A stretch of DNA of 64,000 bases, taken from the NCBI GenBank assembly GCA_965178125.1, contig OZ237749.1, positions 124,001 through 188,000 of the forward strand, read 5' to 3'. The stretch comes from Bilabrum cf. latius. Taxonomy: Eukaryota. Both the position numbers and the translations under genes were made by a program. This document shows positions 1-64,000 of this stretch, piece after piece. Within the stretch, counting starts at the first letter, position 1. Every line of letters starts with the position of its first letter. Under the pieces are notes generated by a model. That model ran no database searches and was not told the DNA's origin. It saw nothing but the letters and a program-made list of their open reading frames with translations.

Positions 1-2347
1 TGCAGCAAGTACCTGATACAGCAGGCCTACATGGCGCAGGTTCAGCCCGTGGCTGTGCAGTGCGCGCTTGATAGCTCGTCGGAGACTGCGAGCATCAGCG
101 CGAAGTGGCCCACCATGCGCTGCACTGCCACTGGAAGTCTTGGCTGCATTGCGAGAATTCCTTAGCTATCCAAGCGCTGCGCATGCAGACGCTGCAGCTT
201 GTTGCAGGTTTGTTGGTCCAGTCAGAAGCTCGCAGACAGCAAACGCCCGTCGTTTCTCAGCCTCCAGCGTCTATGGAGTGCACCGACCTAGCATGAAAGC
301 ATCAGGGCTCACTCTGTCAGGAACATCTACCTTGTCTGCTGCAGCGAGTCGCTCCAGGTGCTTCTTCACGTCCGGCCGAAGCATGCAGGTCAAAACGCCA
401 GTCCCGCCGAAGTACCACGCAGGACAGGATGCGACGAAGACTGCACGCTTGCCCGAGCTGTGCCTGCCGTGCATGACCACGCAGCCGCACCCCCGATGCA
501 CCCCAACAATGCAGACCTCCGCGCCCTTTCTGTCCGCTGCTGAGCTGGTCGACTGTAGAACGCCCTCTTCGGAAGCCGCTGCAGCGCTGCAAAGATGCTT
601 GGTCGGGCTCCACACGCTCGACACAGCGTCGGCAATGGCCTTAGCAGAACCGCCCCCGGCGTCGAGGCACCTCTTCAGCGATGCCGGCAGCCGGGCATGG
701 AACATTCTAGGAGCCCACGATGCCGTTTCCTCCTCTTCCTCCACTCCAAATACAACAGGTGCTGTGCCGGGGTCTTTCTTGGCTGCCTGTATCCAGGCCA
801 TGTCTGGGATCAGCAGCCGGTGCGTGTCCAGCACCACCCTCTCCCCAGTGCCGAGCTGGTGGACCTCCACGTCGAACGGGAGCACCTAGGCGACACCTTC
901 CGGCGCGACCGGGCCATCGTAGCAGCGGGCTTGGGGAGAGCCCCGATAGAACTCGATGACTGTGCCAAGGTTAGCGCCTGATCGAAGGACTAGATCGGAG
1001 TGGTTGACCTTCCCGACCTCTTCACTGACGCTCGAGTCCGGATTCTAGAATTCCTCCTCCTCATTGGAAGCTGTGCTATCCGATATTGCATCGTGTGACT
1101 CTTGCGGAGCGCATGGATCCGTCAATCGGCTGATGCACAACGGCGACAGGCCCATGGCTCGCAGTATATCTGCAGTGGTTGGATAGTCAGTCCGCCGGTC
1201 CAGAGCCTCGAGCACCTCGCACAAAGTGGCTTCAGCTCCCGTTTCGGAGTCCTTTTCCAACACGTGCCTACTTGCATGTCCATCTCGGTCCTCAATGCCA
1301 GAATCACCGGGGCCACTTGCAGCCGTGCCAGCTGCTGATTCGACCGCGGCTGTGGCTAGCCCACTACTGCCAGCATCATCACCCGCAGCTGAGACAGGCT
1401 CCACCTCAACCCAGTGCTTCACCCAGCAAGAGGCACTCTAGTAGCCCCCATCCAGAGCCTTCAGGTGGAAGTGCTCGGCCAGGGGCAGCACCACGGCCTC
1501 GTCCTGCTCCTTGTCAACGTGCATCGTGTGGCCGCCGTCTGCAGAGCCGCAGCACAGCGTTGACTGGCACATCCACGACTGTCATCAGCGGGGTGTTGAA
1601 GTGCACGGTGTCGATCGCGTGCACGGCCGCCGCCGCGTTCACCTCCAGCTTGGTCGCTTTCGCCGCCAGCTCGTCACTCGGGTAGATGCCCAACCCATTG
1701 TCGGGAATCTTAAGGAATAGCCCGTGGCCTTCGTGCAGTGCCTTTGTGCCTCCTGCCATGCCGGAGGGGGCGGTGATGATCTTGATGCCCGCATGCAGCA
1801 CCTCGATGGAGCTGCCTTCGGCTGCGTGACGCCGCATGGCGGCAGGAAGGAGCAATGCGGCCTCCACCGCATCCTGCCTAAATTGATCCCCTACGGCTAG
1901 GATAGTCGCTGCTCTGGCCTGCGCTTCATACTTGTCTGCGGCGATGCGTTGCTTGGCGGCCACAAGCGCCGTCCACGGCGACCTGCCGGCTGGGCCCGTG
2001 GGGGGGCCTACCTCGGCATGCTCGATCTTCGGTGGAATTGACATCGTACATACTTCGCTAGAGCCTGCCCCGGATGCTGGCTCTGGCAGTTAGACGGGGG
2101 CCCTCGCGCCAGAACATTCGCCTGAATCTGCCGCCAGGTATGCCACTAGAGGTTCATACCCCTGACTCGGCAGAGCTTTGAACTGCTCTGCACATCTGGC
2201 CTGTGCGGATGCTTGTACTATATTGCGATCATTGATGGCCTCTTCGCCTGACATGGGACTGTATCCAGCTGCCACCAGCGGCTTTTCAACAGGGGCATCC
2301 GCGGAGACGGCAGAGTATTGCATTTTGTCATTCCTAGCGGTGTCCAT
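1..2347 (-). CDS. CLU (clustered-mitochondria) domain protein, 3'-truncated by the window edge; 5 in-frame TAGs and an apparent frameshift/deletion near 1565-1575 (possible pseudogene or assembly error)
   Basis: CLU-like motifs occur in order: AKATKLEV..FNTPLMTVVD, TLCCGSADGGHT, LAEHFHLK, LPFDVEVH..GERVVLDTHRLLIP, LRPD..VSPDAF, LHSHGLNLRHVGLL. In-frame TAGs at 1438, 1045, 886, 271 and 166 join ORFs 1045..1422 and 271..885 and extend the frame to base 1. Putative ATG at 2347 (gccgccATGg). In-frame TAA at 2090-2092 may be intronic or nonsense. Confidence 0.7.
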
Positions 2348-2756
2348 GGCGGCCGCTGCAACGATGCACAACTACGTTCTTCAATAGTTATCCTCTAGGC
2401 CTCTTTATGGAGCGAGTTTTGCTGGTATCCTCCACAGCTCGTACTGAAGCGATATCACCCAAGTGTATCCGGAACGGAATCCACTGTTCCTAAGCAGGCC
2501 TTGCGACCAAAATGTAACACCGTCGCAGGCCACAAGAGACTTCTAAGGTTTGGAGCTCAACCGAATCGCCCGACAGGTCTGAAGCACACACAGTGTGTGC
2601 GGTTGAATTCGTTGTTGCAGACCTGCAGGGCTACCAAGATTGCGGATCAACTCGAATGAGCCGACAGTCCCAGTATGCAGCACACTGAATGCACACCTGA
2701 GCCCTGCTTGTTCCCCGACTTCTTGATTGAGACTGAAGCTGCTAGAGTATCCACAG

Positions 2757-6079: not shown

Positions 6080-6171
6080 GAGCAGTCGTCACCCCAGCTA
6101 GCCAGGCAATCACACTCTCTCATAACACGAGCAGTCGTCACCCCAGCTAGCCAGGCAATCACACTCTCTCA
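6080..6171. repeat. 43-bp perfect direct repeat x2 (6080-6122, 6129-6171)
   Basis: gagcagtcgtcaccccagctagccaggcaatcacactctctca occurs twice with a 6-bp spacer. The second copy includes the TGA stop of the neighbouring minus-strand gene. Confidence 0.9.
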
Positions 6172-9100
6172 CCCACTGGCAGGGTGCGACTGCAGCCAGG
6201 CCCGTCCTGCCGCCGCGCCCCCTCCCCGCCCTCGATCCACCGCCGCACTGTAGCTGCTGCCCGCACCAGCACCTGCCCTCACGGACCCCGCCCTCGTCAC
6301 ACCCCCAATCGCACCACCGGTACCCTGCGGCCAGCCGGCCTCTATCACTCCCCTCTCAAGGTCCCGACTGGCTGCACCGGCCTATCGAGGCACGCCCGCA
6401 GCTCCCCTACCCGACACGTCCGCCCGCAGCCGCAACCAGCCCGCCGCCTCCCTCGCCGTCAGCAAAGGCGCCCGAGGCGGCAGGGCCAAGGCCTCCCCCA
6501 CGGATGGAGCAGCCAGCAGCGCCGCGCCCTCCCTCAGCCTACCGAAGGCGATCCGCACGGCACCCTGCGCCGACACTTCCTGGCCCTGGCCCTGGCCCTT
6601 GCCCTGGCCCCGTGAGGACGGAGGTACCTGCAGCCCGCTCCTGTCGCCATGTCCGCCACGGGTCGCTGATGGCCGGCCGCCCGACGCACCGGCAGCCGCC
6701 AGCGGCCCCGCCCCCGCAGCGGCCCGCAGGCAGGCCGTGTCTATCGGCTCCGGATCCAGCCTAGCTCGCCTGCGGAACATCCCCTGCGCCGCGCGCACCC
6801 TGGCCGCGAGCAGCAGCCCCGCTGACTCATCCACCGCGGGCCCCCGCAGCACCTCCCGGGCCCAGCCGCGGGCCAGCATGCCTGCGGCCGAGGCCACCAC
6901 CGCGCCGCGGGCCCCCGGCACCAACCGTGCGACGCAAGCGTCCAGCGTCGTACCCTCGATGGCGTGCTGCACCAGCGCTTGCAGCACCGGATCATCGTGC
7001 ACGAGGGCCAGCAGGGCCCGGGGGGGCGCCAGCGAGCCATCCTGGGCCCGTGACTGCATGCCTCCTGTGGGTGTGGGTGTGGATGTGGATGTGCCGGCCG
7101 CAGGAGGAGGGCAGGACGTATCGGCTCGGTTCCCTCTCCTGCCCCTGCCGGCGCGGGGGGGAGACCCACCCCCACCCCGGGGCTCTCTGCCCACCCCTGC
7201 CAGCTCGGCGGGCAGCAGCAGCGTCTCGAGGTCCTGAGCTGCCTCGTCTGCCCTGGCCAGCTCGGATGCGTCGAAGGCGGAGGACTCGAGAGACACGGGC
7301 GAGCTAAAGGGCGAGGGCGGGGGTGCCCCCGCGGCACTTTGGGCCGCATGTCTGCCACCATCACCATCGGTGCCACGCACTGCCGGTGCCTGCGGTGGTT
7401 CATCATCGCCCTGATGCTGGCTGGTAGCACCTTCCGCACGCACAGCCGCCAGGAATTCTCCCAGCGCGCCTCGCAGCAGCGCGCCCGCTGCCTGCTCTGC
7501 TGCCATAGCCCGCATGTCCACCAGTGAGGCATGGGAGCGCCCCATGGACTCAATCGATCGGAGAACAGCATCCACGCCGGCCCCACCCAATGTCAATCCC
7601 GGTCCAGATCCATATCCCAAGCCAGCACCTGCAGGCTGTGCCTTTGCCTGTGCCTATGCCTATGCCTCTCTCGACCTAGGCCCCGATCCGGGGGCGCGTC
7701 GCTTCCCCGATGAAGAACCGGGTGCCGATCCGGACCCGGACTCCGGCGCCCCCTCCCGCCCTTGTTCACTGCATGCATCCTGTTCCCTGAGGTACTCCTC
7801 CGCAGACTCACAGGGCATGGGAAGCACTGCCGCCGCCTCCGCCCAGGCACGCTCCACCAGCACCTCCCCGAAATCGCCAGCCAGCCACAGCGTGTTCAGG
7901 CACGCGGGTGCACTGCACGACAGTCGCAGAGGACCCAGCCGAAGCAGCGCCTGCTCCGCGGGATGACGCACGGCGCCACTCCCGGCGTACGCGCCAGCGG
8001 AATCTCCGCCGCTACCTCCCAGCAGCAGGTCCCCATCGCCCTCGCCCTCGTCTTCGTCCATGTAGCCATCGCTGTCCTCGCCGTCGTCCGCATCCCCACC
8101 CAGCGCGCCCATAACCATACCGAAGAGAGAGCTCCCCACGTCCCTGGCCGCTCGCCCATTGCCACCACCGGTCGCCCCGTCCCCGTCCCCGTCCCCGTCC
8201 CCTGTTCCCCTGCCTACGGAACCCTTGCCAGGCCCGCCCCCACCCTCACCCCCATCCACCCCAGCACCCACGCCGACAGCCGGGTGCCCCTCTGCCTCCC
8301 TCTCCCGCGCGAGCTCCTCCAGTCGAACAGCCCAATCCTGGGCCCCTGCCCACGCCTGCGCCGCCTCCAGCAGCACGCCTGTGTCCTGCAGCTCCCCCGC
8401 CCCCTTGGACAGCACCCGCCCCACTGACAGCACGTCGGACTCCCATGCCCTCGCCACTGCAGCCAGGCCCCCCGCCACCGCGGGAGCCATCGTGGCCCCT
8501 GCCGCCCTCGCTGCCGCATGACCCAGAGCAAAAAAACCTTCGTCTGCCCAACTCCCCACCAGCGGCCCCGTCAGACGGTGGGCGGGCACTCCACCCAGCT
8601 GCAGCCCCGCCGGCTGCTCCCCTGCCCCCTCCGCAGCAGGCAGCACCATCCGCGCGCCGCCACCCGTCCCTGCAACCGCGCCCCCTTCCGTCTCCCACTG
8701 GGCCAGCAAGCCCCCCGCGTCCCTGCCTGCGGGCCTCCACTCCCCCCTGCGCAGCGCTGCAGTCAGCGCACCCCTGCAGCTGCTTTCCTCCACGGCCGCG
8801 TAGGACCCTGCCATGCTCAGCGCAGCGGCTACCAGCCTGCCCTCTGCGTGTGACGAGTGCGTTGCACCCGCCGGACACCCCGTCCCAGCAGCAGACCCCT
8901 GCCCCCAGGCCCCGGTCGCCACCCCCGCAGCCACGGCTCTGCTGGGCTCGTGCACGCCGCCCCGCCCCAGCGCCGCCCCCGCCACCCGCAGGTACCTCTC
9001 GGTGAGTTGCAGGGCAAAGGCAGCCCGGTCCGCAGCAGCAGAGGGGTCGTCGGTCGCCACAGACATACCGTCTGACTGCGCCCCTGCGACAACAGCACCA

Positions 9101-9948
9101 GCACCAGCACCAGCACCAGCACCAGCACCAGCACCAGCACCAGCACCAGCACCAGCAGCAGCAGCAGATGGGCTGGGAGGCAGCCCGGTCTGTTGGCTGC
9201 AGAGGACTAGCACGTCGGCGGCGTGCCGGGCGCACTCCTCATGCAGCCGCGCCGCGACGCCCATCCTCGCCTTCGCCGAGGCATCCAGCTGCGCCACCTG
9301 CTGCAGCCAGGCTCCTGCCGTGGACAAGAGCTCATAGAGGCCCCTCTCGCAAGGCTGCTCGTCCCAGCCGGCGTCGTCCTCGTCTTCCGGCTGCTCGCAC
9401 AGGCCAGTATCCATCTGGCTCGAGGCGGCTGGGGCAGCGACGTTACCGTGCTTTCGTGTAATACCACTTTCGGCGGACTGCAGCCGCACAGAGTCAAGAC
9501 GAGCCCTGATCTGCATCGCGCTCTCTACAAAATCATCGATTGCACGCTTCCCAAACAGTTCTGTGGCGCCTTGAGCTCCAAGACGGGAGCCCAGCGTCCA
9601 TAATACCCTCAGCTAGTCTGGACTGGGCATGTTTGCACCACTTGCTTGCATCTTGCGAAGAATCTCAGCAGCTATTTTCTGCTTTGTCCCCCTTAGAATC
9701 TCTTGCTGCAACTCAATCGCCGTTCTTGCCTGGTCTCTCGACGACGCCACGGCTTTCGAGCCATCATACCCTCCCATCAAAAGCTCTGATCGATACTTTG
9801 CATCGTATGACCGCTTGATGCTGCGCAAAATAGATTCAAGGGCCTCTAAACGCTATATTGCGTCTGAAATACGCCCTTCTCCGTGATCCTGCATGATGTC
9901 ACCCAGCCTACGCCCGAACTCTTCATTGCTGATTGCAAGGTCGGCCAT
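6169..9948 (-). CDS. Hypothetical Ala/Gly-rich protein (~1259 aa) with a helical/coiled-coil-like N-terminus; 5 in-frame TAGs
   Basis: ORFs 9613..9828, 7660..9516 and 6382..7620 are one frame interrupted only by TAG (9853, 9613, 7660, 7654, 6382). ATG at 9948 with upstream in-frame TAA at 9961. Ends at TGA 6169-6171. Confidence 0.75.
9093..9152. repeat. (CAGCAC)10 hexamer repeat encoding (Gly-Ala)n on the minus strand
   Basis: Direct reading; translates as AGAGAGAG in the 6169..9948 gene. Confidence 0.9.
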
Positions 9949-10206
9949 TATATGCAAGGTTTATCCATGATCCTGGCGGAAAGCTCAGGATCTTGTCTTT
10001 CTGTGCAGAATTTGTTGTTACGTGTATTTTGAAATAAGTAACGTGTACTATTATATAATCAGATGCCAGCTTGCTCGTCGCGGACTCAGACGGCTCCAAG
10101 CTTAGGGGTCTAAGTTGTGCATTTGTTTGTACAACCGGGTGTAACTTCGGGCTCATTTGCCTCCCTTTCGGTGACCTGAGGCTCTTTTAGCTTAAAGAGA
10201 CGCACC

Positions 10207-13200
10207 ATGGCGACGTTCGAACCTGGGGTGAGACTCTTGCTGTACGGAATCACCGCATCCTGTACTCTTTGTGCGCTCCTGCTGGAACTGAAGGTTCCAA
10301 ATGTGTTTATTGTAGACCAATTAATACTAGACGAGCTGGAAATCTCTGATAATGGCTGGTTTAGTTGTGTATTTGCTTGTACGAACAATGGTGGTCGCCA
10401 CGACACCTGTCGAGCGCCATTATTTGACCGTCTCTTCTACACGAGAGCGCCATTTGAATGCCACATCTAGCAAGATATAGCTCGCTGGTTGGCACTACGG
10501 CGCGGCGTGCAGGCTGCATCACCGGTATGCTTGCGCCGCGCCAATCGCTGGATCTTGGCGCATCGGCATGAGTTCCGCTCCTGTTTGAGTGCTTGTAGAT
10601 CCGCAGAATGATGTGGATAGTTTGTATGCTTACGATTGCGTGCAGCCTCGCGACAATAGCTGTTATCAAACCGTACCATGGCTCCTTCCGCAGTCGTACG
10701 TTTGGTTCATCCATCCGGAAGACAAATGGCAGTACGGCAAAGTACTTAAGGCTTTTAAGCCCGGGGAGGAGGGAAAGGTGAAGCTTGAAGACGATTCTGA
10801 GTTCAAGATCACCAAGAAGCTGAGCAGCGAGTGCGTGGTGTGCGACGAGGAGCAGCTTGTAGCGCAGGAGAATCTCGTCAAGATGAACAACCTGAACGAG
10901 CCGGTGATTTTGCACAACTTGCGCGCTCGGTTCAAGGGAGACAAGATCTACACGTATATCGGGAACATCCTGATCGCTGTGAACCCGTTCAAGATGCTGC
11001 CCATCTACACTCCGGAGATCCTCGAGAAGTATAAGGACGGCGGATCCCGCAACCAGCCGCCCCACATTTACGCGATTGCCGATTACGCGTACAGCAACAT
11101 GCTTGCTGATAATGCCGATCAGTCGGTAGTGATTTCTGGCGAGTCCGGTGCGGGAAAGACGGAGACGATGAAGCTGGTGCTCCAGTTCCTGGCCGAGGCC
11201 TCCGGGCGAGCGTCCAAAAACAAGGAGGGCGGGTCGACGGAGAGCCTCGAGCAGCAGATCCTCAAGTCAAACCCCGTAATGGAGGCCTTCGGCAATGCCA
11301 AGACGACCCGCAACAACAACTCCTCCCGGTTCGGTAAGTGGACGGAGGTGCTCTTCAACCCCCAGGGGGCCATCGTGGGCGGGTCCATCATCAACTACCT
11401 CCTCGAGAAGTCCAGGATCGTATTCCAGGCCAAGGACGAGAGGAACTACCACATCTTCTACCAGCTGTTCGCCGGCGCGGAGGTGCACAAGGAGATGAAG
11501 AAGGACTTCAAGCTGTCGGAGCTCAACGACTACCACTACACGAACCAGAGCGGGGTCACCACGGTGGACACGATCAACGACGAGAAGGAGTACGTTGACC
11601 TCATGACCGCTTGCGACGTGCTCAAGATGTCGGACGAGGAGAAGGACTACCTCATGAGGACCACTGCCGCGGTGCTGTGGCTGGGCAATGTCGAGTTCCA
11701 GGGGGAGGGCGGGGACGACGAGACGTCGGAGATCAAGACCAAGCCCGCGCTCAAGGAGGCCGCCAGGCTCTTCAAGGTGGACGAGGCGGGACTGATCAAG
11801 TGCCTCACCAAGAAGCTCATCACGGGCTCCACCTTCAAGAACTACAGCGTGAGCGCTGCCAACGACGCGAGGGACTCCTTGGCCAAGGCCATCTACTCGC
11901 AGATGTTCGACTGGATCATCAGGAGGATCAACGTGGTGCTGGGAGGGGCCGTCATCAAGAAAGAGGCGGCTGAGTCGGGCGGCAAGATCAAGCTTACCCA
12001 CATCGGCGTGCTGGACATCTTCGGGTTCGAGTACTTCGACACCAACTCGTTCGAGCAGCTGTGCATCAACTTCTGCAACGAGAAGCTGCAGTTCCACTTC
12101 AACGAGCACATCTTCAAGCTGGAGCAGAAGGAGTACGAGAGCGAGGGTATCGACGTGGCCGCCATCCAGTTCAAGGACAACCAGCCCACGCTGGATCTGA
12201 TCGAGCTCAAGACGACGGGCATCCTTGCCATGATCGACGAGGAGATCAACGTGCCCAAGGGAAGCGACACATCGCTGCTAGCCAAGCTCCTCAAGAAGCA
12301 CGCCAAGCACCCCAACTTCGCCAAGCCCAAGCCCAAGGAGAAGGACAGCCGCAAGGTGTTCAAGGTGTTGCACTACGCCGCCGAGGTGCCCTACAACGTC
12401 ACCAACTTCCTCGACAAGAACAGGGACGCGCTCGCCCCCGACATCTGCCAGGTGCTCATCGCCTCCGAGAGCAAGTTCTGCAGCGACCTAATGACCCTCG
12501 AGCTGGGCGGAGGCTCCGGCGGCAAGAAGAAGAAGAGGGGCGGCAGCAAGGCCACGCTGGGCTCCAAGTTCAAGAAGTCCCTGCAGGACCTCATCGTGCG
12601 GCTCAACGCGACGGACCCCCAGTTCGTGCGGTGCATGAAGCCCAACCACGCCAAGAAGGGCGGCATCTTCACCTCGGACGTCATGCTGGACCAGCTCAGG
12701 AACGCAGGGCTGCTCGAGGTGTGCAGGATCCGGCAGATCGGGTACCCCGTGCGCAAGAAGTTCGACGACTTCGTGTTCCGGTACCGCTGCCTGGACCTGC
12801 TGGCCGCGGCCAAGGGGCACAAGGAGCTGCTGGACGCGCTGACTGAGAAGGGCATCGCCAAGAAGGGCGAGTGGCAGATCGGGCACTCGAAGGTGTTCAT
12901 GCGCAACCTGCAGCAGTCCCAGCTCGAGGAGGCCCGCGAGCACTCCCTCAAGGGCGTCGTGGCAAAGATCCAGACGGCGGCCAGGGGCTACATCATCTGG
13001 AACAGGGCCAAGCGCTGGGCGGAGATCATCGGCCGCATCCGCAAGGCCCTCGCCACCCGCACGGAGGAGGCCCTCAACGAGGCCCTGGGAGACCAGCCCG
13101 AGCTGCCACTGGGCGGCGGCCACCTGGCAGTGGTCAAGGAGGCACGCACCCTGCTGGAGCGGCTGGCCGAGGAGCGTCGCGTGCTGGGACTCATCACAGA

Positions 13201-17332: not shown

Positions 17333-17986
17333 ATGCAGTCGGCGGATGGGCGTCTTGCTGCAATTCGCAGCATGCGAGTCAAGCACGAGGTACGGCTCAT
17401 GCAGGGAAACCTGCCCAGAGGAGTAGAATTCGAAACGAACGAGAGTGCTGAATCGCAGTTTCGCTGCTGGGTAGATGGGCCGCCAGACTCCCCATACGAT
17501 GGCTGTCGATTTGAGCTGTCAGTTTCCATACCGGACGCTTTTCCAATGGAGCCTCCGGCTGTGCGAGTCCTGACGCCAGTACGGCACCCGAACATAGACA
17601 GCAGCGGTAGGATATGCATGAACCTGCTCAAAATGGCAAAAGGGGCTGGCTAGGCATCGGCAGGGTTCTGGAGAGCAAGCTGTTCGATAGTTTCGGTTGT
17701 CACTTCTGTGCAAGCGCTGCTTTAGAGCCCGAATTGCGACGATCCGCTGGTGCCGGCCCTTGCTTCCATGATGTTATCGCATCCAGAGGCCTACTTCTAG
17801 GAGGTTCGGGCGCATGCCCGCAAGTATGCCAGTAGGGATGCATCTAGCAGTAGTAGAGCATCCATGGCGCTCTCGCGCACGTCATCCTCGGCAGCCGGCG
17901 GCGCTGCTGCTGCTGCCGCTGCTGCTGCCTCCCAGCCGCAATCCGCTGCGCCGAGCAGCAGCACTCAGGCTGCCACTGGCATGCAT

Positions 17987-18032
<46 letters not shown>

Positions 18033-46160: not shown

Positions 46161-46443
46161 TGTGACTGCTAATGGCTCTCCACAGTTGCAGCACGACTGG
46201 ACAGACTCTTGCTTGGTTGCACGGTTTCACTGCAGCCGCGCAAGCCGCTTAATCTAGAACCATGAGAAGGCAAATTAAACAGTCCCGTGTGTTGATACCC
46301 AATAAAGCTCTTGGGAGTCTACAGAGACTGCAAATTGGGGAGCCCTCCAATCGTCATTCGGAGCCTTGGTCCGCAAGTGTGCTCTATCGGGCCTCGTTAC
46401 CGCACTCTGCGCATACCCAAGTCTAAGTTTGCTCTCCTATACC

Positions 46444-51438: not shown

Positions 51439-52188
51439 TCACACGCCAGGAGCTCGACCAGAAGGGCCAGCACGTGGCGCCCCCGCCCCACCCCCCTCTC
51501 CAAACGTAACGTTGCCGTGCTGTTGTACTGGTACGTACGTCACGCTGCCCCAAAACCCCTCCTCAGCCTGCTGTGCCACAACCCGCCGGGTCGCTTCGAT
51601 GTCGGCCGTGAATGTACGGACGGCCTTCAAGAACTGCCAGCATAGATATCCGATGTAAAAGCTAATTAAGATATTCAGGATGCTGAATATGACCTAGTAG
51701 ACCTCCTGGTCGAAGGTTGCCATGTAGTATATTTGCAGGCCCACTTGAAGGGCTTGGTAGAAAAGGTAACCCCACACGCCCCAACTCTGGACATAATAAG
51801 CACTGTACAGAGCACATATTGGGAACATGAGCGTAATCAGTAGAATGGGAGACAGCCCAAACCCCCAAAATAGTCCGAAAATCAGGTCAATGATTGCAAA
51901 AATCATGAGTGATCTCCTGCATGACATGATTATGTATATGTTCTAAATGCTCTCGGCCGACAAGCCAGCACCAGGCCCAAGCTATGCCCCACGATCGCCA
52001 TAGATAGTACTTGGATGCCGCTGTTGCTGCTGTGGAAGGGCGACAACAGTTGCAGTCGGAATACCATCGGCGCCAGTCGGCGCCTAATACTAAGGCTGGC
52101 CGCCCCCAGGGTACTACGGGGTCTATCTGGCTCTTGCAAGCTCTTCTCGCTATAAACGTGCAGCTAAATCTGCGTCCGACTCGGCCAT
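51439..52188 (-). CDS. Small four-TM-like membrane protein (249 aa) with an N-terminal DAxLAARLQxEE-type motif and a Q/P/Y-rich linker; 8 in-frame TAGs
   Basis: MAESDADLAARL*REELARAR*TP*YPGGGQP*Y*AP...PQQQQ, then four hydrophobic helices. TAGs at 52150, 52123, 52114, 52090, 52084, 51982, 51943 and 51694. Ends at TGA 51439. Confidence 0.8.
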
Positions 52189-52371
52189 TTGTACAGGTTT
52201 AGAGAGCCTAAACTCGTTTGACGTATGAGACGTCATGCAGATATTTCTCCGTTCAGCTGAACGTTCTTGGGGAAAAGGAACGTTCGGTTTTAACCAAAGA
52301 AAGTAGGGGGAAAAACGCACTACTTTGGGTCGCCTAGAGATGTCACATAGTCCAACTTGAGTCAATCAAAT

Positions 52372-53145
52372 ATGTCAGATTTGCGAGGCACAGGGGAAGC
52401 ACGCGAGAACCTCTACGCCCTTCTTGGCTTGGATGGTCCAGACCAATTCGATGCTAGCGATAAGGAAATCCAGAGACAGTTTAGACGACGCGCCATGCCA
52501 CTGCATCCGGATCAGGTTCGACGTCGTGGTGGAAATGAGGAGGACGCCCGGAAGCTGTTCGATGAATTGCGAAAAGCGAGAGATACGCTGCTAGATCCGG
52601 AGCTGAGAGCGGGGCACGACAAATGGCTGCGAGTCGGGGCGGCAGCCCAAATTCGAAGATCATAGGAATCAAAACAGAGACAAAAAGCACGTGCAGACCT
52701 CGAGGCGCGCGAGCAGCGCGCTAGGGAATCCGATGCAGCGGCGGCCGCCAGCTCTGCCCGCTCGTCGGAAGCGGCCCGCCATGCTCGCTTCATGGCACCA
52801 TTCGATGCAAGCCAGGCATCGGCGGCAAAAGGTGCGAAAGAATGGGAAACCGCGGTAGAGGCGTCTCGGGAGGACTTCGCTGCTGCCATCGCGGCGCTCG
52901 ATGCGTCCTCCGGCGCTCGCTCCGGTGCTCGCTCCGGTGCCGCCAACGAATCGACGGACGAGCCCGCCGCGAAGCGCCCGCGGACCTCCTCCCCGCCTGC
53001 TTCCTTGTCTTAGCCTCTGCATTCCGCACCAAGGGATCCGATTATGCGGCGACTATCCCAGGCCGGTGTACCCCTGCCTGCTGGCCTCGGCACTGGCGAG
53101 GACTTGGAGGAGCTGCTCGAGTGGGCGGGGCAGGTGCGGGGGTGA
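52372..53145 (+). CDS. DNAJC17: J-domain co-chaperone, DNAJC17/Cwc23-like (257 aa); 2 in-frame TAGs
   Basis: NLYALLG..EIQRQFRRRAMPLHPD..LLDPELRAGHD. The family motif R.K.R.DLEAREQ lies after TAG 52663; second TAG at 53011. Ends at TGA 53143. Confidence 0.8.
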
Positions 53146-53594
53146 GGGTCGGCTGTTCCTGCGATGCATCATCGGTGCCATGGGTGCATGGGTATTATAG
53201 TTTGCATGGGTGTGGGCAGCTGTTTCGGGCGTCGAAACGGTTCGCAAGGGAGAAGGTGGCACCACGCGGAGGTTCGTCGAATGCCTCCGAGTCATGTCTC
53301 TAGTGCTTGCGCTCTCATTTCGTTTGATGGGCTCTAGTGTACCGTAGCTTCGTACAGGCGCAGACTGGCCTAATGTGATCCATAGTCGCCTTCATCGCCC
53401 CATTTGCAAACCAAGCGAGCACAACAAGCGACCGCCACAAATACGAAGATGATGCAAGACGCCACCATGACGGTCGCAGCGGAAATTCTATCGGTCTACT
53501 TGAGCGTCGCTCTGGGCCTGAAGGCCGCGTTTAGAAGCTCACGCTAAGTTTTAAGTTGGTGATCACTAACCGGGACTGATTGCCATCTTCAGAC

Positions 53595-56500
53595 CTTTCC
53601 TGGGACTTGGTGCAAGTGTGGACGTAGATGCCTTCGATTTTGGCAGGTTGCTCGCGGTAGCTGTACAAGTCTGTGCGCTTTGGTTGGAGTCTTCCGGGCG
53701 ATGTAGCGCTGGTACACGACGAAGTATGCTTTCAATCTGCACTAGCCGCCGCTGGCAAGTCCGGCCATCATGACAGTCTGCCAGTTCTAGTCCCGTGCAC
53801 TTGGTTGGGTCCAGAACTCTCTCCTCCCGGTGCAGAGCTTGCGTTTCGGTCCTACCAAGCGTAGGCTTATGGGCATATATACTCTTTATTCTCAGTCATG
53901 GCTTTTCTGGTATGTTCGTACTATGTGCTGGATACGGCACACATTGCTGTGGGAAACGATGCGTTTCCGGAGCTCGACGACCAGTACATGGCGTGCGTAT
54001 TGTGGAGGGTTGCAGGGGTTGTGTCTACCATATTTTGTTTGGTGGCACATTTTTTGCGGGGACAGTGCACCTCTACTCCGCTGATTCTAGAGGCATCGAA
54101 GGCTGTCGGCCTGGTGGGCATCTCGACGTGTAACCTCGGCCGCATCGCGTTGATGCGAAATACCAGCTAGTTCGCGAGGGGCATCGGGGTAGAGACGGTC
54201 TTGTTCCGAGCATTGATCCCATTGATGCTGCGCGGCGATTTCATCGTTGCATGCACCGCAATGGCGGTCGACGTTGCTCAAGTGATCTACGTGCAGGCCA
54301 TGTACTTCCCTGGAGATCGCAGTCTCAACGACTATGACGTGCAGCTGAGTGTCGTTGGACTTATCGTTGCTATTGTGGTATTCAAGTCGGTGTACGGAAG
54401 CGCAAGAGAGCAGTTCTGCCTCCGCGCGCGGCTCTACAAGCGCAGGCTGGAAACAGCTCTCGCGGCGCAAGCCAGGGCCACACTCTCCAAGCAGTCCCCG
54501 TGCATGCAGCTGCTGGCCAGATCCGGGGCCCTAGTGCTGCTGCCGGGAGACGCAATCAATGAAGGCGGTAGCGACTCCTCTACATCCCCTAATTCCAGCG
54601 AGGAGCAGGAGGCAAGCAGCCCCTCCCAAGGCGAGGCCCCTCCTGACCTCGCCAGCGACGGGGAGCCGCAGCAGCCCCCTCCCTCTACGTCGCACTCGTC
54701 ACATCAACCCGCCCCGAAGCAGGACACGCATACCTCTGACGACGTGCTGGTGCTCCGGGAGCCCTCTCTGCTGCTGACCCAGGGGGAGGCGACCCACTGC
54801 GACCATAGGGCCAGGCAGTGGGGCGGGCTGGGGCTCAGGTGGTGGTCGCACGCGGGGAGCAGGGAAGGGTCGCCCACAGGTCTCGAGACCTCGGTGCAAG
54901 GTGTGACGAGTGCGCGCAGGCTAGCACCTTGGCAGATGCTTGCCCCAATGGAGGGTGTGGCCCAGGTCTGTTCCTCCCTCGGTGTCCGGCGAGACCACGC
55001 GCCCCTCGTCTTTTTATTGCTGAGCGAGTGCGTCGGCACCGTCGTAATTGGAGAAAGGAAGCCGATGAATAGCGGATCTGAACAATTTTAGGGCAGGCCT
55101 CTGCAACAGGGCAGCGGTCCGCCTCGCAATGGCATGCTAGACCGGTTCGAGCCAGGTGCGGATGCTTGGCTGCGGGCCGCAGCCGTCATCCTAAGAGGGG
55201 TGGTCAGAGTGGACCGACTCAAGCATGCAAACGCCGCCACTAGGTCGGGAGGATCTTCGGGTTTGGCCCGAGACATGTCCCAGCAGGGCAACAGCAGCAC
55301 CTCGCTCTCCCACGCCTAGCGAGCTGGCGGCCCCAACAACGTGCAGGGCCTGCAGGCAGCCCCCGCCGGTGCGCCGTCATCTCGGTCGTAGTCCGACTCG
55401 AAGCTGGGTAGCAGGCTTCCGTCTTAGCCCAGCAGAGCCCGTGAACCCAATTTGACGAGAAGCAGGCAAGCAGCGCGCACCGCAGCTGCGCCTCGTGGAA
55501 CCCCACAGTTGCCTCGCAAAGGGCATTCGTGGGCCGGGTCGGGCACTCCGCCGCCCCACAGCAAGCAAGCTGCAGTCACCACTGCGCAAGGCACGCGTGC
55601 AGCAAGCACATCAGTCTAGCAGAGCATACTTCGCCCAGGAAATAGCCTGCCTTCGCCCACTGCGCCGCCCTAGTCCGGCCGCAGCGACAGCTGCTCTGGC
55701 GCCGCCTCCCGGCAAGTGCGCAGGAGGAGAGAGGTGGTGGGTGCAGCCATCCAGGCCGCGGCTCCGCGGGTCATGGAGGTGGCCAAACTCGCGCCCGGTC
55801 TCCGCAGGTCTGGATCCAGGTCTAGCATGGTCAAACCCAAAACCTCGCGCGGCAAGCGACAGAGGCCGTGGTGCTGCGACTGGGCGACCAATGGTGGCGA
55901 CCAGGGCAGTTCGAGCTGTTGCGGGGTGCCAATTCCAGCCGTGCTGCCGTGGACGGTCACCCAAGAAGCGATTCGACTCAGATAGCAGATTTGGCGCCTG
56001 CGATCGGCGTCGTACTCTGCTCTCATGGCAGGTCTCCGACTGCACGTGGCCCCGATGCCTGACGAAACCGAGGTCCTTGCGGTGAGCAAGCAGCTGCTGG
56101 GCCCCGCCAAGATGCGGTCTCAGCTGCAGCGGCGCATGAGGGCGTACGGTCGCCAAGTTCCGCTGGCTGTCTCGACCGATGAGCACGATGCTTTTGGGGG
56201 GGTCTCTCTGGCGGGTTCGCCGCAAGCAGCCTCCAAGAGCAGCACAACGGCAGGTGAGTCGGCCTCCACGGAGCTGACACCGGCAGCGGGGCACGGCGGG
56301 CAGCACTTTGCCGCGCTCCAATCTCACCCTGATACGATGCAAGCCGTCAAGCCTGCAATAAGCGTGCAGCCGTATCTGCCGCGATCGGCCACGGGAAGCA
56401 GACGGACGTTCCGGGGCGGCGTGCTGCCTCAGCAAGGCAACGGCTCAGAGGCGGACTCATCAAGCCGCAGCAGCGAAGCGATGATCGGCGCATTGAAGCG

Positions 56501-59500
56501 GACTGAAGTGAGGGAAGTGACCATTGCCGATCATCTAGATCTCGGGGGTGATGCTGACCGCGACGCCGCTAAGCAAGCTGGGATCCAGCGGCGAGGGGGT
56601 CGGGCTGGGAAGGAAGGCCTGCTGTCACCCAGAGATGACCGAGACGAGAAAGAAATCAAGGGAGGAGTGAGAGCAGGGAAGCGACGGTCTCCGCGCAGCT
56701 AGTCTCGCAAGCCGGGCGGTGCGCCGTCAATGCAAGGAGGAAAGTCAAAGTCAAAATCGATGACAACTGATTTTGAGCTTTCTAACTCCATTCCAGTGGC
56801 TGGTGACAGCTATGAGATGGCTCGCAGGTCCTCCCATGAGACAGCCGGCAGGTCATCTCGCGAGCTAGGCGACGGGAGGTCGAGTCGCCCGGTCCATTCG
56901 CACCACTTGGGCTCTAACCCCGATGACGACCTCCAGCCGCCATCATCGGATGGATTTTTTGAGGCTATGGGTATCGGGTCAAGTGGAATTGGATACAAGA
57001 ATTCCTTTATCGAGCATGGCGTAGGCGCAGTCAAGGATGCAGCAGCTGCACCTAGCCCGCACAGCGGTGGGGTGCAGGTCGCGGCCGACCCACTGAACAG
57101 CCGCGACCGGCTGCACATGCACCACTCCGCCCACGCAACATCCGAGCCGTTGCGGGGCGTCGATGCCCCCATAGTTCCAGGTGGCGTACAACCATAGAGC
57201 GATGCTGGAACTTCGCCGACTAGTGGATCTCCAATCGACAGCTCTCCACCGGGTGGCAATTCTCTGACTCGAAGAGCCACACGCGATGCGTCGGGAGTCA
57301 CGACAGTGGCACCATCCCGCACCGCTATTGGGAACACTCGGGGCCGCGAGGCAACGCATGCTGCCAGCACCGATGCCAGCAGCGGCAGGATAGAGTCGTA
57401 CGCCAAGGAAGACGATGTGCCCGTGTCGATGAACTCGTGGGCTCAGGCAGCTGCCAGTAGTCCAGGCACGGGGCCATTGGTCCACGGCTAGGAAGGAAAC
57501 AGCGAGTACGACTCTTCAAACACTCACGGCCGGGACACTGCAGAAACGCACGGGCTCACTGTGACACAGAGCACCTATGATACGGAGCGCCCCCACCGGG
57601 TCAGGATCCCGCTGGTGCAAGGAAGGCCCAGTGCAGAGGTAGACTGGACGGACCGATCGCTAAACGGTGGTGCTAGCAGTGGAGAGTTTGCCACCGGCTC
57701 CAATTCGGTCGGGGCGAACATGCTGCAAACGGAGACGTCCTTGGGTGACGGCAGCTCCGGGGCGACCAGTCCACGGGAGTCTAGCCGCATGATGCATCGA
57801 CCAGTCTCCGTGCGTGAGCTGCAGCGTAAGACCGACAGGACAGCTAGGGGCTATGCCCATCGGGAGTCTGCAGAGCTGGATGCCTCCATGGACGATAGCG
57901 AAGGGCTCGTGGGGCCTGGCTACGAGCAGCCTAGGCTGGGCGGTCGAGCTAGTCTCGGTCTCGCGCCCATTCGGGAGGTGCCCGACAGCGACCCAGCGAT
58001 GGGTCGAATAGACACCGATGAAAGCACGAGGGAGACAGCAAGCAGCCCATAGACCGAAGACGCCCAGGCCTCGGGTAGGATGGAGAGAACCACATCGGAG
58101 CGGCACATGCAAGCGAGCCTACAGCCGGATGAGATCATTCCTACAAAGAATGGCAGCAAGCTCCCCAAGCAGGGCACCAATCACACGTCAGGGCGATCGT
58201 CCATGGAGCTTTTCAACCAGGACTTCACCGATGTGACGCCACGCACCAACACTGCTACTGAGGGACCGACTGGATACAGCGTGCAACGATTCCATTCGCA
58301 GGACACCCGGGCCAATCCATCCGCGGCAGTTGTCACAGTGACCCACGGAGCGAGGCCGAGGCCAGCTCAGGGGGCTGTGTTGGCCCTGTCGACTGACATG
58401 AGGGGCATTCCATCTGATATTCTCTGGCAGTTGCAGCACGACCGTAAGACTTCGCATGCTCAGCAGCTGCCAAGTGAGAGCATCGGCAGCGGCAGTGCAA
58501 TCCTGCGAAACAGCCCCCGCTTTCGCAGCAGGGCGGTCACTACGCGAGCCGATGACCCAGGCAACGGCATCCCTCGTGGGATGGGGATGACGCTGCAGTC
58601 TCGCATGCGGCTGGTTGCGGGGCAATCTGCCGGATCGGTGGCGGGCGCGTCGCAGATGCATGACGGCTTGCTGGACAACGCGCAGTAGAGCCCAGCGGTG
58701 CTGAGAGAGCATCACTTGGAGCGATGGCCCGTTGGTGGAAGCGTGCTCCTGCCTGCTTCTGCTATCGAGCAGGAACAGTCACAGGTTGGCGGCGGCTCCT
58801 AGCTAGCGCTTGCAGACCGGCATGGCAGCAGCTCGGCTGGGACCGCTTCCATCATGTCGACCGACGTGTTGTAGCGAGTGCACAATTTCTCGCATGGCAC
58901 GCACCGCGGCTCGCGTATGCTTCTCGCGGCCTCGAACTCATCTATGAGTCCTGCCGGGGGCGGCGATTCCAGCACAGGATAGACCCGAGCCTTCGTTAGC
59001 AGCAGGCGTCCTGACTCTGGGTCTGTCTCCGGAGACTCCGCCGATGACCTGAAGGAGGCAGTGTATAGCCAGCCAGACTGGCCATGCAGCCGAGGCAAGT
59101 ACGACATGGACGATGGCGGCGGCGGTGTAGCAAGCGGCGGTGGAAAGGCGGTTGCAGAGGCGAGAAAGCAGGTGGCTCGGTTCGCGCAGGACGTGGATCA
59201 GAACGCTGATCTTTTCCAGGGATCAGCAGATTCCGAGGCACAGCCAAGTGAGAGCGGGGATGATGGTCAAGACGGCCTGGAATCGTTCCAACCGCTGGAA
59301 CTGGCTCCCTTCCAGCGGTCACCCGGCACGGGATCACTACCAAAGGGGCAGCGATCGCCCCCCAAGTCTTCTCGGTCCAAGAACAGTGGGCTGCCCCCGC
59401 TCCCGCAGCACGCGCCGCTGCCCAGCCCAGCATTCAAAGGGCCATTGGGGAGGCAGGCCAACCCGCTGCCAGCCATCAGCGAGAAGGTCACGAGTGAGCC

Positions 59501-59852
59501 CACGGGCAGCCCGGTGCGGGACACCTAGCCAGCTCCCAGCTTTGCTGGTAGAGACACCCGCGATCGTGTGGCGTCAGAGGCGCTATACAGGGCTACTCCA
59601 GTGATTCCGACAAGCGACAAACTCGACGATTGGGTGGCATGCATCGTGCGCTCCGCGGGCAGGTGGGTCCACCGATTGCGAGTGCCTGACCTTGACGATC
59701 CCAGCGGCAGCCTATCGGTGCTAGTTGACAGCGAGAGCGGCAGCAGGCTTGTGCTGACTGCGTCAAGGGTAGAGGGGCACGATGTGGGGCTGCTGTGTGT
59801 GCACGTGTACGAGGCGCCCGAGTGCCTGATGCCGCAGACTGTAGCTGTGTAA
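53595..59852 (+). CDS. Very large hypothetical protein (>2080 aa): N-terminal multi-pass TM region and a long Ser/Gly-rich disordered body; 20 in-frame TAGs; probable short upstream exon near 53449-53545
   Basis: Twelve track ORFs (53673.. to 59568..) lie in one frame, and the only interruptions over 6.26 kb are TAG. Ends at TAA 59850. A branch-point-like cactaac and a ttcAG acceptor at 53592 lie upstream. Confidence 0.8.
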
Positions 59853-59980: not shown

Positions 59981-62900
59981 TCACGAAAGCTCAACGATCT
60001 TTGGCCGGATCCCGATTCGCACCCCTCTCGTTGCTCCGAGATTGCTCACTTCCTTGCTCAGCAGTTCCTGCATTTTGCCCACGCACGAGCGGGCATGGCC
60101 TCGCACTACTAGATCCTTGTCCTACTCCGCAGTCGTGGACGCAAGCCGCTGCACTCGCAGCAGCAAAGCCGCTAGGCTCTCCGTCAGCCTTCCCACAGGA
60201 ATCGCTTCAATCAGCCGAAACAGCAGATAGACGGCTGCCCTGCGCAGCTTCGATTCGGCTAATCGCACAGCACGAGGGACCTCGGTGGAACCAGTCGCAG
60301 GGCCCTCATCGCCCTGCATTCTCCCGCTGCTGCCGTCCCGGCCTTGCGTGCCTACTGCTGCACTCTCACTTACTGTGCCTACAAGCACCGAAGCGGCCCC
60401 ACCTACACAATCCTCCAGCAGCGAGACGGAGTGAGCGTGCCCGCCGGCAACGGTTAGAGCATACACTATGTCTGCCGCGGCCGTCAAGCCAGAAGCCCTA
60501 AACTCTTGCCATTCCACGCGCATTCGCAGCTCGGCTGCTGAGATTTGCGCGGCTGCCTCTCCACCACTCCCGCTCCCAGCTGTGACTTTGCTCCCTTGAG
60601 CAGCACCTCCCGCCGACGTCACCGCGCGTGGCTGCTCGGCTTCGAGAACGCATTTCTCGCCGCTTGGCTGGTCATCCCGTTCTACTGAATTGCTGGCCAA
60701 TCTGTGCAGGACAGCGCGAGACACAGCAGTGGATCCAGTCGGGGCCACAAAGCTACTTCTAGGATCCAGCGCTGCCTGAACCAGAGCAGCCCCGCCTTCT
60801 ACAACCGCGACACTATCGCCAGCCAGGTCTTGCAAGACGGCCCCCTTTGGCTGCTTCACACCAGATACACCTGAAGCTGAAGGTTCGACCTCCCCGTCCT
60901 CGGACTCTGACGCAGCGAACCACAGACATGCGTCCATTGGCGGAAGCTCTGGACCACAGCCAGCCTTCATGCATGCACCAAGCACACCGCGGGCATAGGC
61001 CGGCAGCAGCTCGCCTGCCCGCCCTGCCACCTTGATGAGCGCCAAGAAGAGCCTGGTGCGTGCTTTGATCGGGCGATCGTGCTCCATCGCGAGCTTGGCA
61101 AGCAGTGGCACCATTTGCTTTGGCGCGCGTCTTGCGGCTGCCTCGAGCAGGGCTACAGCAGCCAGGTGCACGTACGAGTCCTCGGCGGCCAAATGAGCAC
61201 ACGCCAGCCTCACGATTCGGCCCAGTAGTCCTTCAACCGGGGCCAGCAATGTCCTTGCTTCTGCCTCGGACATGCTGCGGAACGCATCGGCAATCACCTG
61301 GAGGCCACCGCCTTGCATGGCAGGCGATGGGTCTACCAGCATGCCCACACCCTGTCTCAAAGCAGCCTTGAACTCGCTGGCCATTTGCTCCTGTTCTGCT
61401 TTGCTATGCGAGGCGCCTGCATCCGCTACTCCTGTGGCATGCGAACCTATCGGCCGTGTAGGTGCTGCGCCAGCCGACAGCAGCCCGGCCACAGTCGTAG
61501 CCACCAATTCACGGATGGTCGCCGCAACCCCTTGTGCTGCTTCCTCTTCATCGCTTCCGATCTTGCCTTCACCACTGACCTGTGCATCCTCACGAGCGTG
61601 CAGCTTCACTTGCAGCGGTAGCAGGGTATCGACAGCTTGCTGGAGCCAAGGCATGCTCTTCGATGCAGCACTATCGGCGGATGAGCTGACACCCACAGAC
61701 TGCTCTGTGTTACCACGATCAGAGTCTGTTCCTGTTATAAGCATCTTACCGAACACATTTGTCACCCCTTTCAGCAGCTCGCAGGCACCAAGGAACAGAG
61801 GGAGGCAACTGGCACCAACACTATCCTCGATGTTTGAGCCGAGCTTGCCCGCGGCGCCTTCCCCAACTGCGACCCGACGCACGGCATCCGATGTGTATGC
61901 AAGCACATCTGCTGCAAATCTAACAACCCCCACCAAATCTCCCTCGATTGCAGCTGGGCCCAGAGTCCCCATCAGCTCGACAAGGAACTGCATGGCCACG
62001 TCCTCGCCGATATCAGCTGGATGCATGCTGCTCGTCAGCAACGGCCCTGTGCTGCTTTCAGGTTGGTGTGTGCGTGCATCAGTTGCAACCTTTAAAATTG
62101 CCCCCAGCGCAATCCCAGGCAGGCCTGCCTCGATCAGCGAAGTGTCGCGCAAGATCACCGCGGCTTCGTCTGCAACTGTAGCGACCATGCCGGAGCTGGA
62201 CGACGACCGAGATTCAGCTTGCTGTTGCTATCCAGCGGCTGCTGGAATCGATACTCCATCTCGGACAATTGTGAGCCGCTACAATTCAGCAATTCCCCGA
62301 CTTCCCGCATCGTCCTGGTCAAATTTGGTCTGGTCTGTACCAGTGCATGCGATAGTCGCAGCAATTAAGCATTGCTGTACGAAGGCCTCGCCTGCCACAT
62401 GCCCTCCAGCGCGCAAAAACACTCGCACAGCACGTCTCAACGACTCTAAGGAAGCTAAACTAGACTCTTGTCCGCCATGATCCCCCACCTAAAGCTCCAG
62501 GAGATGCGCGCTTCCGGCAGCGGCTAGGCATGCTGCAGCACCCGGATGTAGAGACGCGTGGTTCGCGAGAACTGACAAGGTATTGTGCAGTGGCCACAGC
62601 TGTTCGCTAATGGCGACTGGTGCAGGTGCATCTGATGGTGCCTGGTGCGCCTCGGAGCTCAAGGATCCTTTCCAAGCCGCCACAGCTGCTTTTAGTGCGA
62701 GCCTGCTTCCATTGCCCCAGCAGCGCGAGGCGGCAAGGAGCAGACGCAGCTTGAACTGCCGTGATCTCATTGAGCGATCACGATCCAACCCTGCTCGAAC
62801 GCCCGCAATAGGAAGAATGAGCTGCATAGCAACGCGCACACTAGCAGCCGCACTCAGCCCGACAGATGCCATCCGATCCCCCGAAGCCCTTCCCCCAGCA

Positions 62901-64000
62901 GGTCCACCGGCAGGCGAGGGTGTTGGCGTCGGTGCCAACGCGTCCATCAGATGCAGCGCAACCCGTGATGCGATCATGAATTTAGGGTCATTCTGTAGAA
63001 TCTGCGCAGTCTGATCCCCTTGCCCTTCCTGACCACTCTCCTGGCCACTGGCACTGGAGCTGCCAACAGCAGCAGCAGCACCAGAGGCAGCAGCTGGGTC
63101 TTGTCCACCGCTGGCAACCGATTGTCTGCTGCCATTGGATAGCAGCACCATGGCTTGGGAAGCGACGCTTGCAACGTATGAAGGCTAATCGACAGTAAAC
63201 TCAGACGGCGGACCCCCCAGCGACTTGGTCCATACTCCCGGCCCGCCCAGTGCCACCGACTTGGCCAATCCCTCGGCTGATTTGAGCAGTGCGTCGGGCC
63301 TGAGCCCCTCAAGGGTGGACAGGCTGGCTGCTCCCAGTCCACCGGGGCCTGAGACCGTCCATCGGACTACTGATTGGGCTAGCCTTCCGTAGCACCTCGC
63401 GGCTGCGAATGCCTGTCGCTGCTGGTGCGTGCTGCGGCCCCTTTGAGGCACGCTCGGGCTTCCCACCGGGAGGGCCTGGAAGGCTGCGTGCGATCGCATG
63501 CCGGGGTCGCAGCGGAGGAGCATATGTCTTAGCTTCTGGCATGGAGAGTCCTCGCGATCCGTTCCATGGCGCGCGGCAACCCGCTCTGCTGCGTCAATTC
63601 GCTGCCAAGTCTCAGAGATGAGCAATGCCCTGACCGCGTCGGGCAGCACGGTCTTGGTAAACGACCTTTCCGGACAATTAGACACGGCAGATATGATAGC
63701 TTCGATGGTTTGATTTAAGCAATACTGCCTGTGACTTGCAGTTGTCTTTGGTGCAGCAAATGGGAAGCAGCTCTCTCGAAACCTCTGCAGCCGGGCATGC
63801 TTCCACCCTATCTTTGCTGCTGATGGCCGCTTGGTGAAGGCAGGAACAGCGCGTAGTGGAGCATTCACGTACACACATAGCAGCCACATGCAGTCCAATA
63901 CGAATATGCATGACTGCAAGGCAGTGATGTTGATACCAGTTGAGCCATCACCCTTGCGTTGTACCACAGCGGCACTGAGAGCTTCTGCAGAAGTTCTGCA
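59981..64000 (-). CDS. TANGO6: TANGO6 / Rtp1-family HEAT-repeat protein, 5'-truncated by the window edge; 5 in-frame TAGs
   Basis: RTP1_C1-like LVDPSPAMQGGGL..EDSYVHLAAV, FRASGL, LRRAAVYLL and the terminal E*DKDLVVRGHA motif. TAGs at 63185, 62489, 62279, 62228 and 60122. Ends at TGA 59981. Confidence 0.75.

Follow-up and report, generated by a model that had tools for sequence, protein, structure and literature searches.

In-frame TAG codons in 64 kb of nuclear DNA from a GC-rich protist suggest that UAG is read as an amino acid

General features of the window and distribution of stop triplets

The window analysed here, i.e. the whole stretch of 64,000 nucleotides (positions 124,001 to 188,000 of contig OZ237749.1; all coordinates below are those of the window), is eukaryotic nuclear DNA and contains about 18 protein-coding open reading frames (ORFs), which are distributed to both strands, are tightly packed, and are interrupted by few short GT-AG introns. 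The G+C content of the window ranges from 48 to 69% in 4-kb steps, and that of the genome is approximately 62%. The subject of this report is the triplet TAG, which recurs inside the reading frames of these genes, including those for a myosin, a UBE2T-like enzyme, and a tryptophanyl-tRNA synthetase (TrpRS). Very probably, as judged from frame counts and homology, the cytoplasmic translation system of this organism, which appears to be a GC-rich, intron-poor heterotrophic stramenopile near Cafeteria, reads UAG as an amino acid and terminates at UAA and UGA.

ORFs were delimited with TAG read through. Together, the 18 ORFs, which are located on both strands, comprise 17,039 codons; 81 TAG, 0 TAA, and 0 TGA triplets are found in frame, and the two off frames of the same stretches contain 202 TAG, 71 TAA, and 517 TGA triplets. 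TAG thus occurs at a density of 4.8 per 1000 codons in frame versus ~5.9 off frame; since the two densities are close, TAG is not avoided in frame, and UAG is without purifying selection against it in reading frames. An in-frame ATG precedes 77 of the 81 in-frame TAGs, and in 15 of the 18 ORFs, likely essential genes included, the frame continues past each TAG. Treating TAG as sense extends the longest ORFs, measured from stop to stop, from 1646, 1293, and 1149 amino acids (aa) to 2788, 2120, 2090, 1509, 1339, and 1263 aa. The top three lengths are unchanged if TAA is treated as sense, and dropping TGA as a stop yields a smaller gain than dropping TAG, though TGA is far commoner. Of the three triplets, TAA occurs least often (193 and 195 times on the two strands).

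An earlier reading of the window, made from the letters alone (hereafter the sequence-only reading), had reported about 80 in-frame TAGs in about 18 genes and had placed five of them at 15527 (myosin), 17651, 17723, and 17798 (UBE2T), and 32708 (TrpRS); the count comes to 81 in 18 ORFs, and these coordinates are exact. Its proposal of a sense role for TAG, with TAA and TGA retained as stops, agrees with the frame counts, with homology running through TAGs, and with the TAA ends of the histone H3 gene and two other ORFs. Its statement that all termini are TGA or TAA holds for all 17 complete ORFs (14 with TGA and 3 with TAA); one further ORF is open at the window edge.

Genes with homology running through TAG

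As judged from family matches and alignments, TAGs sit inside conserved domains. The myosin ORF (10589..16951, + strand) comprises a motor domain (Pfam E 1.9e-229), a coiled coil, MyTH4, and a FERM/PTB-like tail that includes an IRS-type PTB. Its one TAG (15527) is located in the block 'GYCGDK-x-MSFP', which is aligned in 120 of 120 homologues, and the MyTH4 and PTB-like domains follow downstream of this codon in the same frame. The ORF has no ATG before codon 99 (10589-10885, +), and homologues align from approximately residue 25, so that the true start probably lies on an upstream exon. The UBE2T-like E2 enzyme (17333..18496, +; ends with TGA) is closest to human UBE2T, and all three of its TAGs (17651, 17723, and 17798) are within the UQ_con match. 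Two of them align ungapped to human UBE2T; the third is in a loop insertion of six residues, which is too short for an intron.

The ORF at 31985..33154 (+; ends with TGA) is the second exon of a gene for a Trp-tRNA ligase of the mitochondrial/bacterial type. Its first TAG (32708) falls in a block aligned with solved TrpRS structures, and the other (32798) is in an insertion. The gene is split (31700-31990, +): the first exon ends with ...HARNL at a GTAAGG donor near 31877, with a TAA inside the donor, and the frame resumes by ~31985. The genome thus contains introns that have canonical donors. The uDENN-DENN-dDENN protein (23234..31600, -; ends with TGA) has seven TAGs, three of which (29894, 29138, and 29051) are flanked by the DENN match and the dDENN match in one frame, and the NCA2-domain protein (18566..23095, +; ends with TGA) has nine (18656 to 20822), upstream of the domain and in the same frame. 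The 2090-codon ORF at 53580..59852 (+), which matches no known family, contains 20 TAGs but neither TGA nor TAA in frame, versus 77 TGA and 11 TAA in its other frames; its TAA terminator (59850-59852) and the end of the convergent gene are 128 bases apart.

Other genes and features

The remaining ORFs are described in order along the window. At the left edge, an ORF on the - strand (1..1581) is open at the window boundary, contains five TAGs (1438, 1045, 886, 271, and 166), and resembles CLU weakly; the CLU label of the sequence-only reading corresponds to a Pfam match that stays below threshold (E 0.017 and 0.039) and is split over two frames. Near 1581, in the overlap of the ORFs 1514-2089 and 1-1581, the reading frame of this CLU-like gene shifts by one base (region 1480-2460, -); the shift could be due to an intron, to an error of one base in the assembly, or to a genuine frameshift. 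A TAA (2090-2092) bounds the upstream CLU-like ORF (1514-2089), and upstream of this TAA a further 96 codons are open in the same frame. This triplet, noted previously as an in-frame TAA at 2090, does exist, but the 96 open codons lack family support, and its location within a coding sequence is thus unsupported.

A 1263-codon ORF of no known family (6169..9960, -) contains TAGs at 9853, 9613, 7660, 7654, and 6382 and ends with TGA; a 49-base unit in tandem duplicate (6076-6171, 97% match) extends from just downstream of this TGA into the stop itself. Further along are a 1149-codon ORF with a weak F-box/LRR match (33371..36820, -; no TAG, TGA end), a peptidase M76 gene of the ATP23-like type (37581..38363, -; one TAG at 37683, TAA end), and a 901-codon ORF of no known family (38460..41165, +; TAG at 38517 and 39987, TGA end). 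The histone H3 gene (41460..41873, -; 137 codons, no TAG) has a divergent central part with one extra residue, and it ends in Ser where Ala is usual; this copy may be an H3 variant. It is followed by a 394-codon low-complexity ORF (42496..43680, +; TAG at 42505 and 43636) and a 467-codon ORF of no known family (43774..45177, +; eight TAGs), both ending with TGA.

An Aldolase_II and HAD fusion (46306..48669, +; no TAG, TGA end) is of the MtnB-MtnC type, the methionine-salvage class II aldolase MtnB and an MtnC-type HAD hydrolase forming one ORF of 787 codons. The adjacent region 48700-51400 is the most AT-rich part of the window (GC 0.477 in 48001-52000) and is without a supported gene: the ORF at 50319-51008 matches no Pfam family, and an 84-base tandem duplication is present at 49275-49446. 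This region may be intergenic or promoter DNA, or a decayed insert. Beyond it lie a 249-codon membrane protein gene (51439..52188, -; eight TAGs), a gene for a DnaJ-domain protein (52294..53145, +; TAG at 52348, 52663, and 53011), and an RTP1/TANGO6-like gene that is open at the window edge (59981..64000, -; TAG at 63185, 62489, 62279, 62228, and 60122), all of which end with TGA. The label DNAJC17 of the sequence-only reading is without support beyond a DnaJ domain; the TANGO6 label stands on matches to RTP1_C1 (E 1.6e-9) and, weakly, RTP1_C2, and no EF-hand, also claimed there, was found in the window.

The residue specified by TAG

The searched collections are without a close relative of this organism (the best myosin-tail match is 53% identical, and an exact look-up of five window translations in a protein collection found none of them present). 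Only TAGs in conserved stretches are informative on the residue. In the myosin column, the 120 homologues have Q (48), S (27), H (16), T (9), L (9), A (4), K (4), and P, V, and I (one each); Cafeteria roenbergensis has Q there, in a 25-residue context identical to that of the window. The two UBE2T columns (n=12) consist of A (9), S, Q, and V (one each) and of A (5), R (2), I (1), K (1), and three gaps, respectively. The TrpRS column (n=120) is headed by T (47), N (22), G (17), S (9), A (8), and Q (3), with others, and the two membrane-protein columns by E (10) and Q (2) (n=17) and by E (7), Q (4), and N (3), with others (n=29). When log-odds were summed over eight columns, Q obtained +3.7 bits, A +1.5, S +1.0, E -10.0, L -12.6, and Y -18.4, with K and W also in the range -10 to -18; these sums are crude in that homologues are treated as independent, so that the two large columns are overweighted. 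No residue signal was found in the neighbour context of the TAG codons. The ORF at 6169..9960 contains a run of six hexamers of the form NAG-GCA (GAG-GCA TAG-GCA TAG-GCA CAG-GCA AAG-GCA CAG), which fits an origin of TAG from CAG; among the seven tandem repeats in the window, none shows TAG/CAG variation among its copies.

From these columns, UAG probably stands for glutamine. The sequence-only reading had made the same assignment, and Q is indeed the top-scoring residue, on eight alignable columns. Three points weigh against glutamine: the call rests on eight columns that are mostly variable, Q leads A and S by only ~2-3 bits, and homologues are without Q at three of the eight columns. The last two of these points also speak for the alternative that survives best, namely that UAG is sense but specifies another residue (Ser, Ala, Glu, Leu, or other), which we consider unlikely. 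Besides the three columns without Q, A or S/T/N dominate several columns, E leads both membrane-protein columns (10/17 and 7/29), and UAG is read as leucine in a rhizarian and in ciliates (PMC5304391, PMC11687900). However, Q ranks first overall with L, E, K, Y, and W far below, the nearest named relative carries Q amid identical neighbouring residues, alanine has no standard codon one base from TAG, and glutamine is the commonest outcome of UAG reassignment according to PMC11687900. Leucine in particular is disfavoured by the aligned columns, where it occurs in 9/120, 0/12, 0/12, and 0/120 homologues.

TAA and TGA as terminators

According to the homology at gene ends, UAA and UGA are real stops, UGA being the main one. 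In the myosin and TrpRS ORFs, TGA is located where homologues end. In histone H3, the Pfam Histone profile is matched to its last position and is followed by four more residues (...RIRGERS) and then TAA (41460-41462), which is the canonical end of H3. The letters at this site (G-TAA-GT) are similar to those of a splice donor; termination at the exact end of the family is nevertheless the simpler reading. The 2090-codon ORF, if continued past its TAA, would run antisense into the convergent neighbour, and a second TAA follows 24 codons on.

Several observations weigh against UAG being a sense codon with UAA and UGA as the stops. The whole data base is one 64-kb window, TAA terminators number only three (H3, the M76 ORF, and the 2090-codon ORF), and ARAGORN found no tRNA genes in the window. 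In addition, TAG occurs 13 codons before TGA (at 43636) and 33 codons before TAA (at 37683) in two ORFs, so that occasional termination at TAG is possible where the C-terminus has no homologue. These last two ORFs are what speaks for a dual, context-dependent UAG that is read as sense within genes and as a stop at the ends of some; moreover, the delimitation of ORFs with TAG read through would mask any genuine stop at TAG. Such a dual meaning is nevertheless improbable: TGA or TAA ends every complete ORF, TAG is found at none of the five homology-defined C-termini (myosin, H3, TrpRS, the HAD end of MtnB-MtnC, and RTP1_C2), in-frame TAG is not avoided, and TGA and TAA never occur in frame, unlike in known ambiguous codes.

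The common code in which both UAA and UAG specify glutamine and UGA is the sole stop, with TAA rare through GC-richness, would account for TAA being the rarest triplet and for the predominance of TGA ends. It is very improbable here. If TAA were synonymous with TAG, ~21 in-frame TAAs would be expected beside the 81 TAGs (CAA/(CAA+CAG) = 0.209), and none is seen (P ~6e-9), against 71 off frame; no internal TAA occurs in supported genes when TGA is taken as the sole stop, reading TAA as sense lengthens no supported gene, and TAA stands at the canonical end of H3.

Consistency across sequencing runs

The stretch 15000-23100 was compared with public sequencing runs, in which 0.99 of sampled words were present in four runs of one study, which may be the source of the sequence, and 0.93, 0.54, and 0.51 in runs of two other studies. 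No differing letters were found on 15000-34999 among the contigs of four runs from three studies; the listed contig pieces cover 22 of 22 TAGs in run X1, 14 in X5, 1 in X6, and 3 in X7. Contigs of X5, X6, and X7 end at 17165-17186, and the X1 contig continues; the shared end hints weakly, at most, that a transcript ends there, and is not used as evidence. A public 70-aa protein (P0256), which is 99% identical to the product of 51439-52188, begins at an internal Met, and its last residue immediately precedes the TAG at 51694. It has the look of a gene called under the standard code in a near-identical strain. A second fragment of 83 aa (P0257) is 55% identical to the C-terminal part of the same membrane protein and may derive from a more distant relative whose gene was likewise cut.

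That the TAGs are not translated at all, being sequencing or assembly errors, introns, pseudogenes, or sites of RNA editing, is hardly credible: introns do occur (TrpRS) and the matching runs are all without an RNA label, which makes editing or splicing formally possible, but the same letters recur in runs of three studies, homologues align ungapped through TAGs, the frame is kept across them, and a damage-type C-to-T artefact is unsuited because such errors would also create in-frame TAA and TGA, none of which is seen.

Placement of the organism

Cafeteria heads the named matches to the myosin, which are stramenopiles and otherwise comprise Pinguiococcus, Octactis, Triparma, Chrysophaeum, Hondaea, and Tribonema; two further named matches bear non-stramenopile labels (Durusdinium and Batrachochytrium salamandrivorans). 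Over the whole myosin, identity is 57% to Cafeteria roenbergensis versus 49-52% to ten metagenome proteins. A FastTree analysis of 50 myosin-tail sequences, for which the top 36 and 13 named sequences of the 120 matches were taken and sequences shorter than 1200 aa were left out, groups the window with Cafeteria and the protein P0023. The organism is therefore placed provisionally as a bicosoecid-like heterotrophic stramenopile, provisionally because the placement comes from one gene.

Metagenome data were also scanned for relatives. With the myosin alignment, 80 loci were found, the best being 49% identical; with the NCA2 protein, 137 pattern matches contained no relatives. When 16 window proteins were compared with the 80 myosin loci by tblastn, no match and hence no synteny was found. 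One metagenome contig of 26,135 bases (L001), from a more distant relative with a 49%-identical myosin, shows no merging of ORFs when TAG is read as sense and has no neighbouring genes in common with the window by tblastn.

Codon use and predicted decoding machinery

The use of TAG varies among genes. TAG represents 1 of 77 Gln-type codons in myosin (third-position G+C content, GC3, 0.92), is absent from the 46 such codons of the ORF at 33371-36820 (GC3 0.88), and makes up 8 of 24 and 8 of 20 in weakly biased genes. More generally, the high-GC3 genes (myosin, 33371-36820, MtnB-MtnC, and H3) are almost without TAG, and low-GC3 genes are TAG-rich. TAG thus behaves as a minor codon, being scarce in the most codon-biased genes and common in weakly biased ones.

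UAG would be decoded by a tRNA with the anticodon CUA, which would pair with UAG but not with UAA. Such a tRNA could most simply have arisen from a copy of tRNA-Gln(CUG) by one anticodon change, and eRF1 would have lost recognition of UAG while still recognizing UAA and UGA. It has been argued that a tRNA reading UAG yet ignoring UAA must have a CUA anticodon, one change away from tRNA-Gln(CUG), and eRF1 changes have been described in two organisms with such codes: T32G in the GTS motif in Iotanema and an unusual Ala at position 69 in the rhizarian exLh (PMC5304391). The 64-kb window contains no Rfam matches and no rRNA, and the eRF1 gene is not within it.

Comparison with known codes

Reassignment of UAG alone has been described in Iotanema (to Gln) and in the rhizarian exLh (to Leu) (PMC5304391), as well as in phyllopharyngean ciliates, once to Leu and twice to Gln (PMC11687900). 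Codes that split UAG from UAA are rare, being represented in these papers by two non-ciliate lineages and three events in one ciliate class (PMC5304391, PMC11687900), and UAA is the main stop in the UAG-only organisms that they describe. The legend to Figure 4 of PMC5304391, which covers the nuclear code variants known in 2017, includes no stramenopile. In full-text literature searches, with most subscription journals outside their coverage, no nuclear code change was found to be reported for any stramenopile or bicosoecid, and two matches of apparent relevance dealt with other matters; the runs date from 2025, and a description may be in press. An independent, undescribed origin, which the sequence-only reading had suggested, is plausible, since the organism, which groups with Cafeteria, belongs to none of the known UAG-only lineages and no report was found. 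On balance, although with less confidence than for the codon itself, we favour an undescribed independent origin of a UAG-only code, the first nuclear code change in a stramenopile, in a GC-rich genome with UGA as the main terminator.

Codes that split UAG from UAA bear on how eRF1 discriminates the two codons and on why both usually change together. If the present case is true, its starting point differs from that of the known UAG-only lineages, where most genes stop at UAA, and UAG could become decoupled from UAA starting from either compositional extreme. A free-living stramenopile that is present in runs of several studies would constitute an independent replicate with a UGA-dominant stop economy. 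The proteome of the organism, and any plankton survey in which it occurs, would be mis-annotated, because standard-code gene calling cuts its genes into pieces, as in P0256.

The code described here would be an Iotanema-type code in a new lineage. As in Iotanema spirale (Fornicata), UAG is split from UAA, the probable residue is Gln, and the predicted mechanism is the same, i.e. a tRNA-Gln(CUA) together with an eRF1 weakened for UAG (PMC5304391). The two organisms differ in that Iotanema belongs to Metamonada, an unrelated supergroup, and the present organism provisionally to Stramenopiles, and in that UAA is the primary stop in Iotanema (PMC5304391), whereas here TGA ends 14 of 17 ORFs at ~62% G+C. 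As is probable here, the phyllopharyngean ciliates Hartmannula sinica and Trochilia petrani reassign only UAG to Gln, and they use UAG widely as sense, but UAA is their preferred stop; suppressor tRNA(CUA) genes have been reported in their leucine-decoding relatives (PMC11687900). UAG is also decoupled from UAA in exLh and in three uncultivated phyllopharyngean ciliates, where it specifies Leu (PMC5304391, PMC11687900). These leucine codes differ from the present one in the residue, Leu scoring -12.6 bits at the TAG columns of the window.

The code in which UAR specifies Gln (NCBI table 6) occurs in many ciliates, hexamitin diplomonads, oxymonads, and ulvophytes. It resembles the present code in that UAG is read, here probably, as Gln, and differs in the role of TAA, which in the window is never in frame and ends H3 and two other ORFs. 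Codes in which a codon is ambiguously stop or sense are known from Condylostoma, karyorelicts, and Blastocrithidia; in contrast, TGA and TAA are never in frame in the window, and TAG is absent from the five homology-defined C-termini. Cafeteria roenbergensis (Bicosoecida), which presumably has a GC-rich and intron-poor genome and uses the standard code, is the nearest named organism in whole-myosin identity (57%) and occupies a sister position in the tail tree. It differs in that its myosin is one uninterrupted protein of 2070 aa, with Q at the TAG column. As a close relative with what we take to be the standard code, Cafeteria would allow a direct comparison of tRNA and eRF1 between the two organisms.

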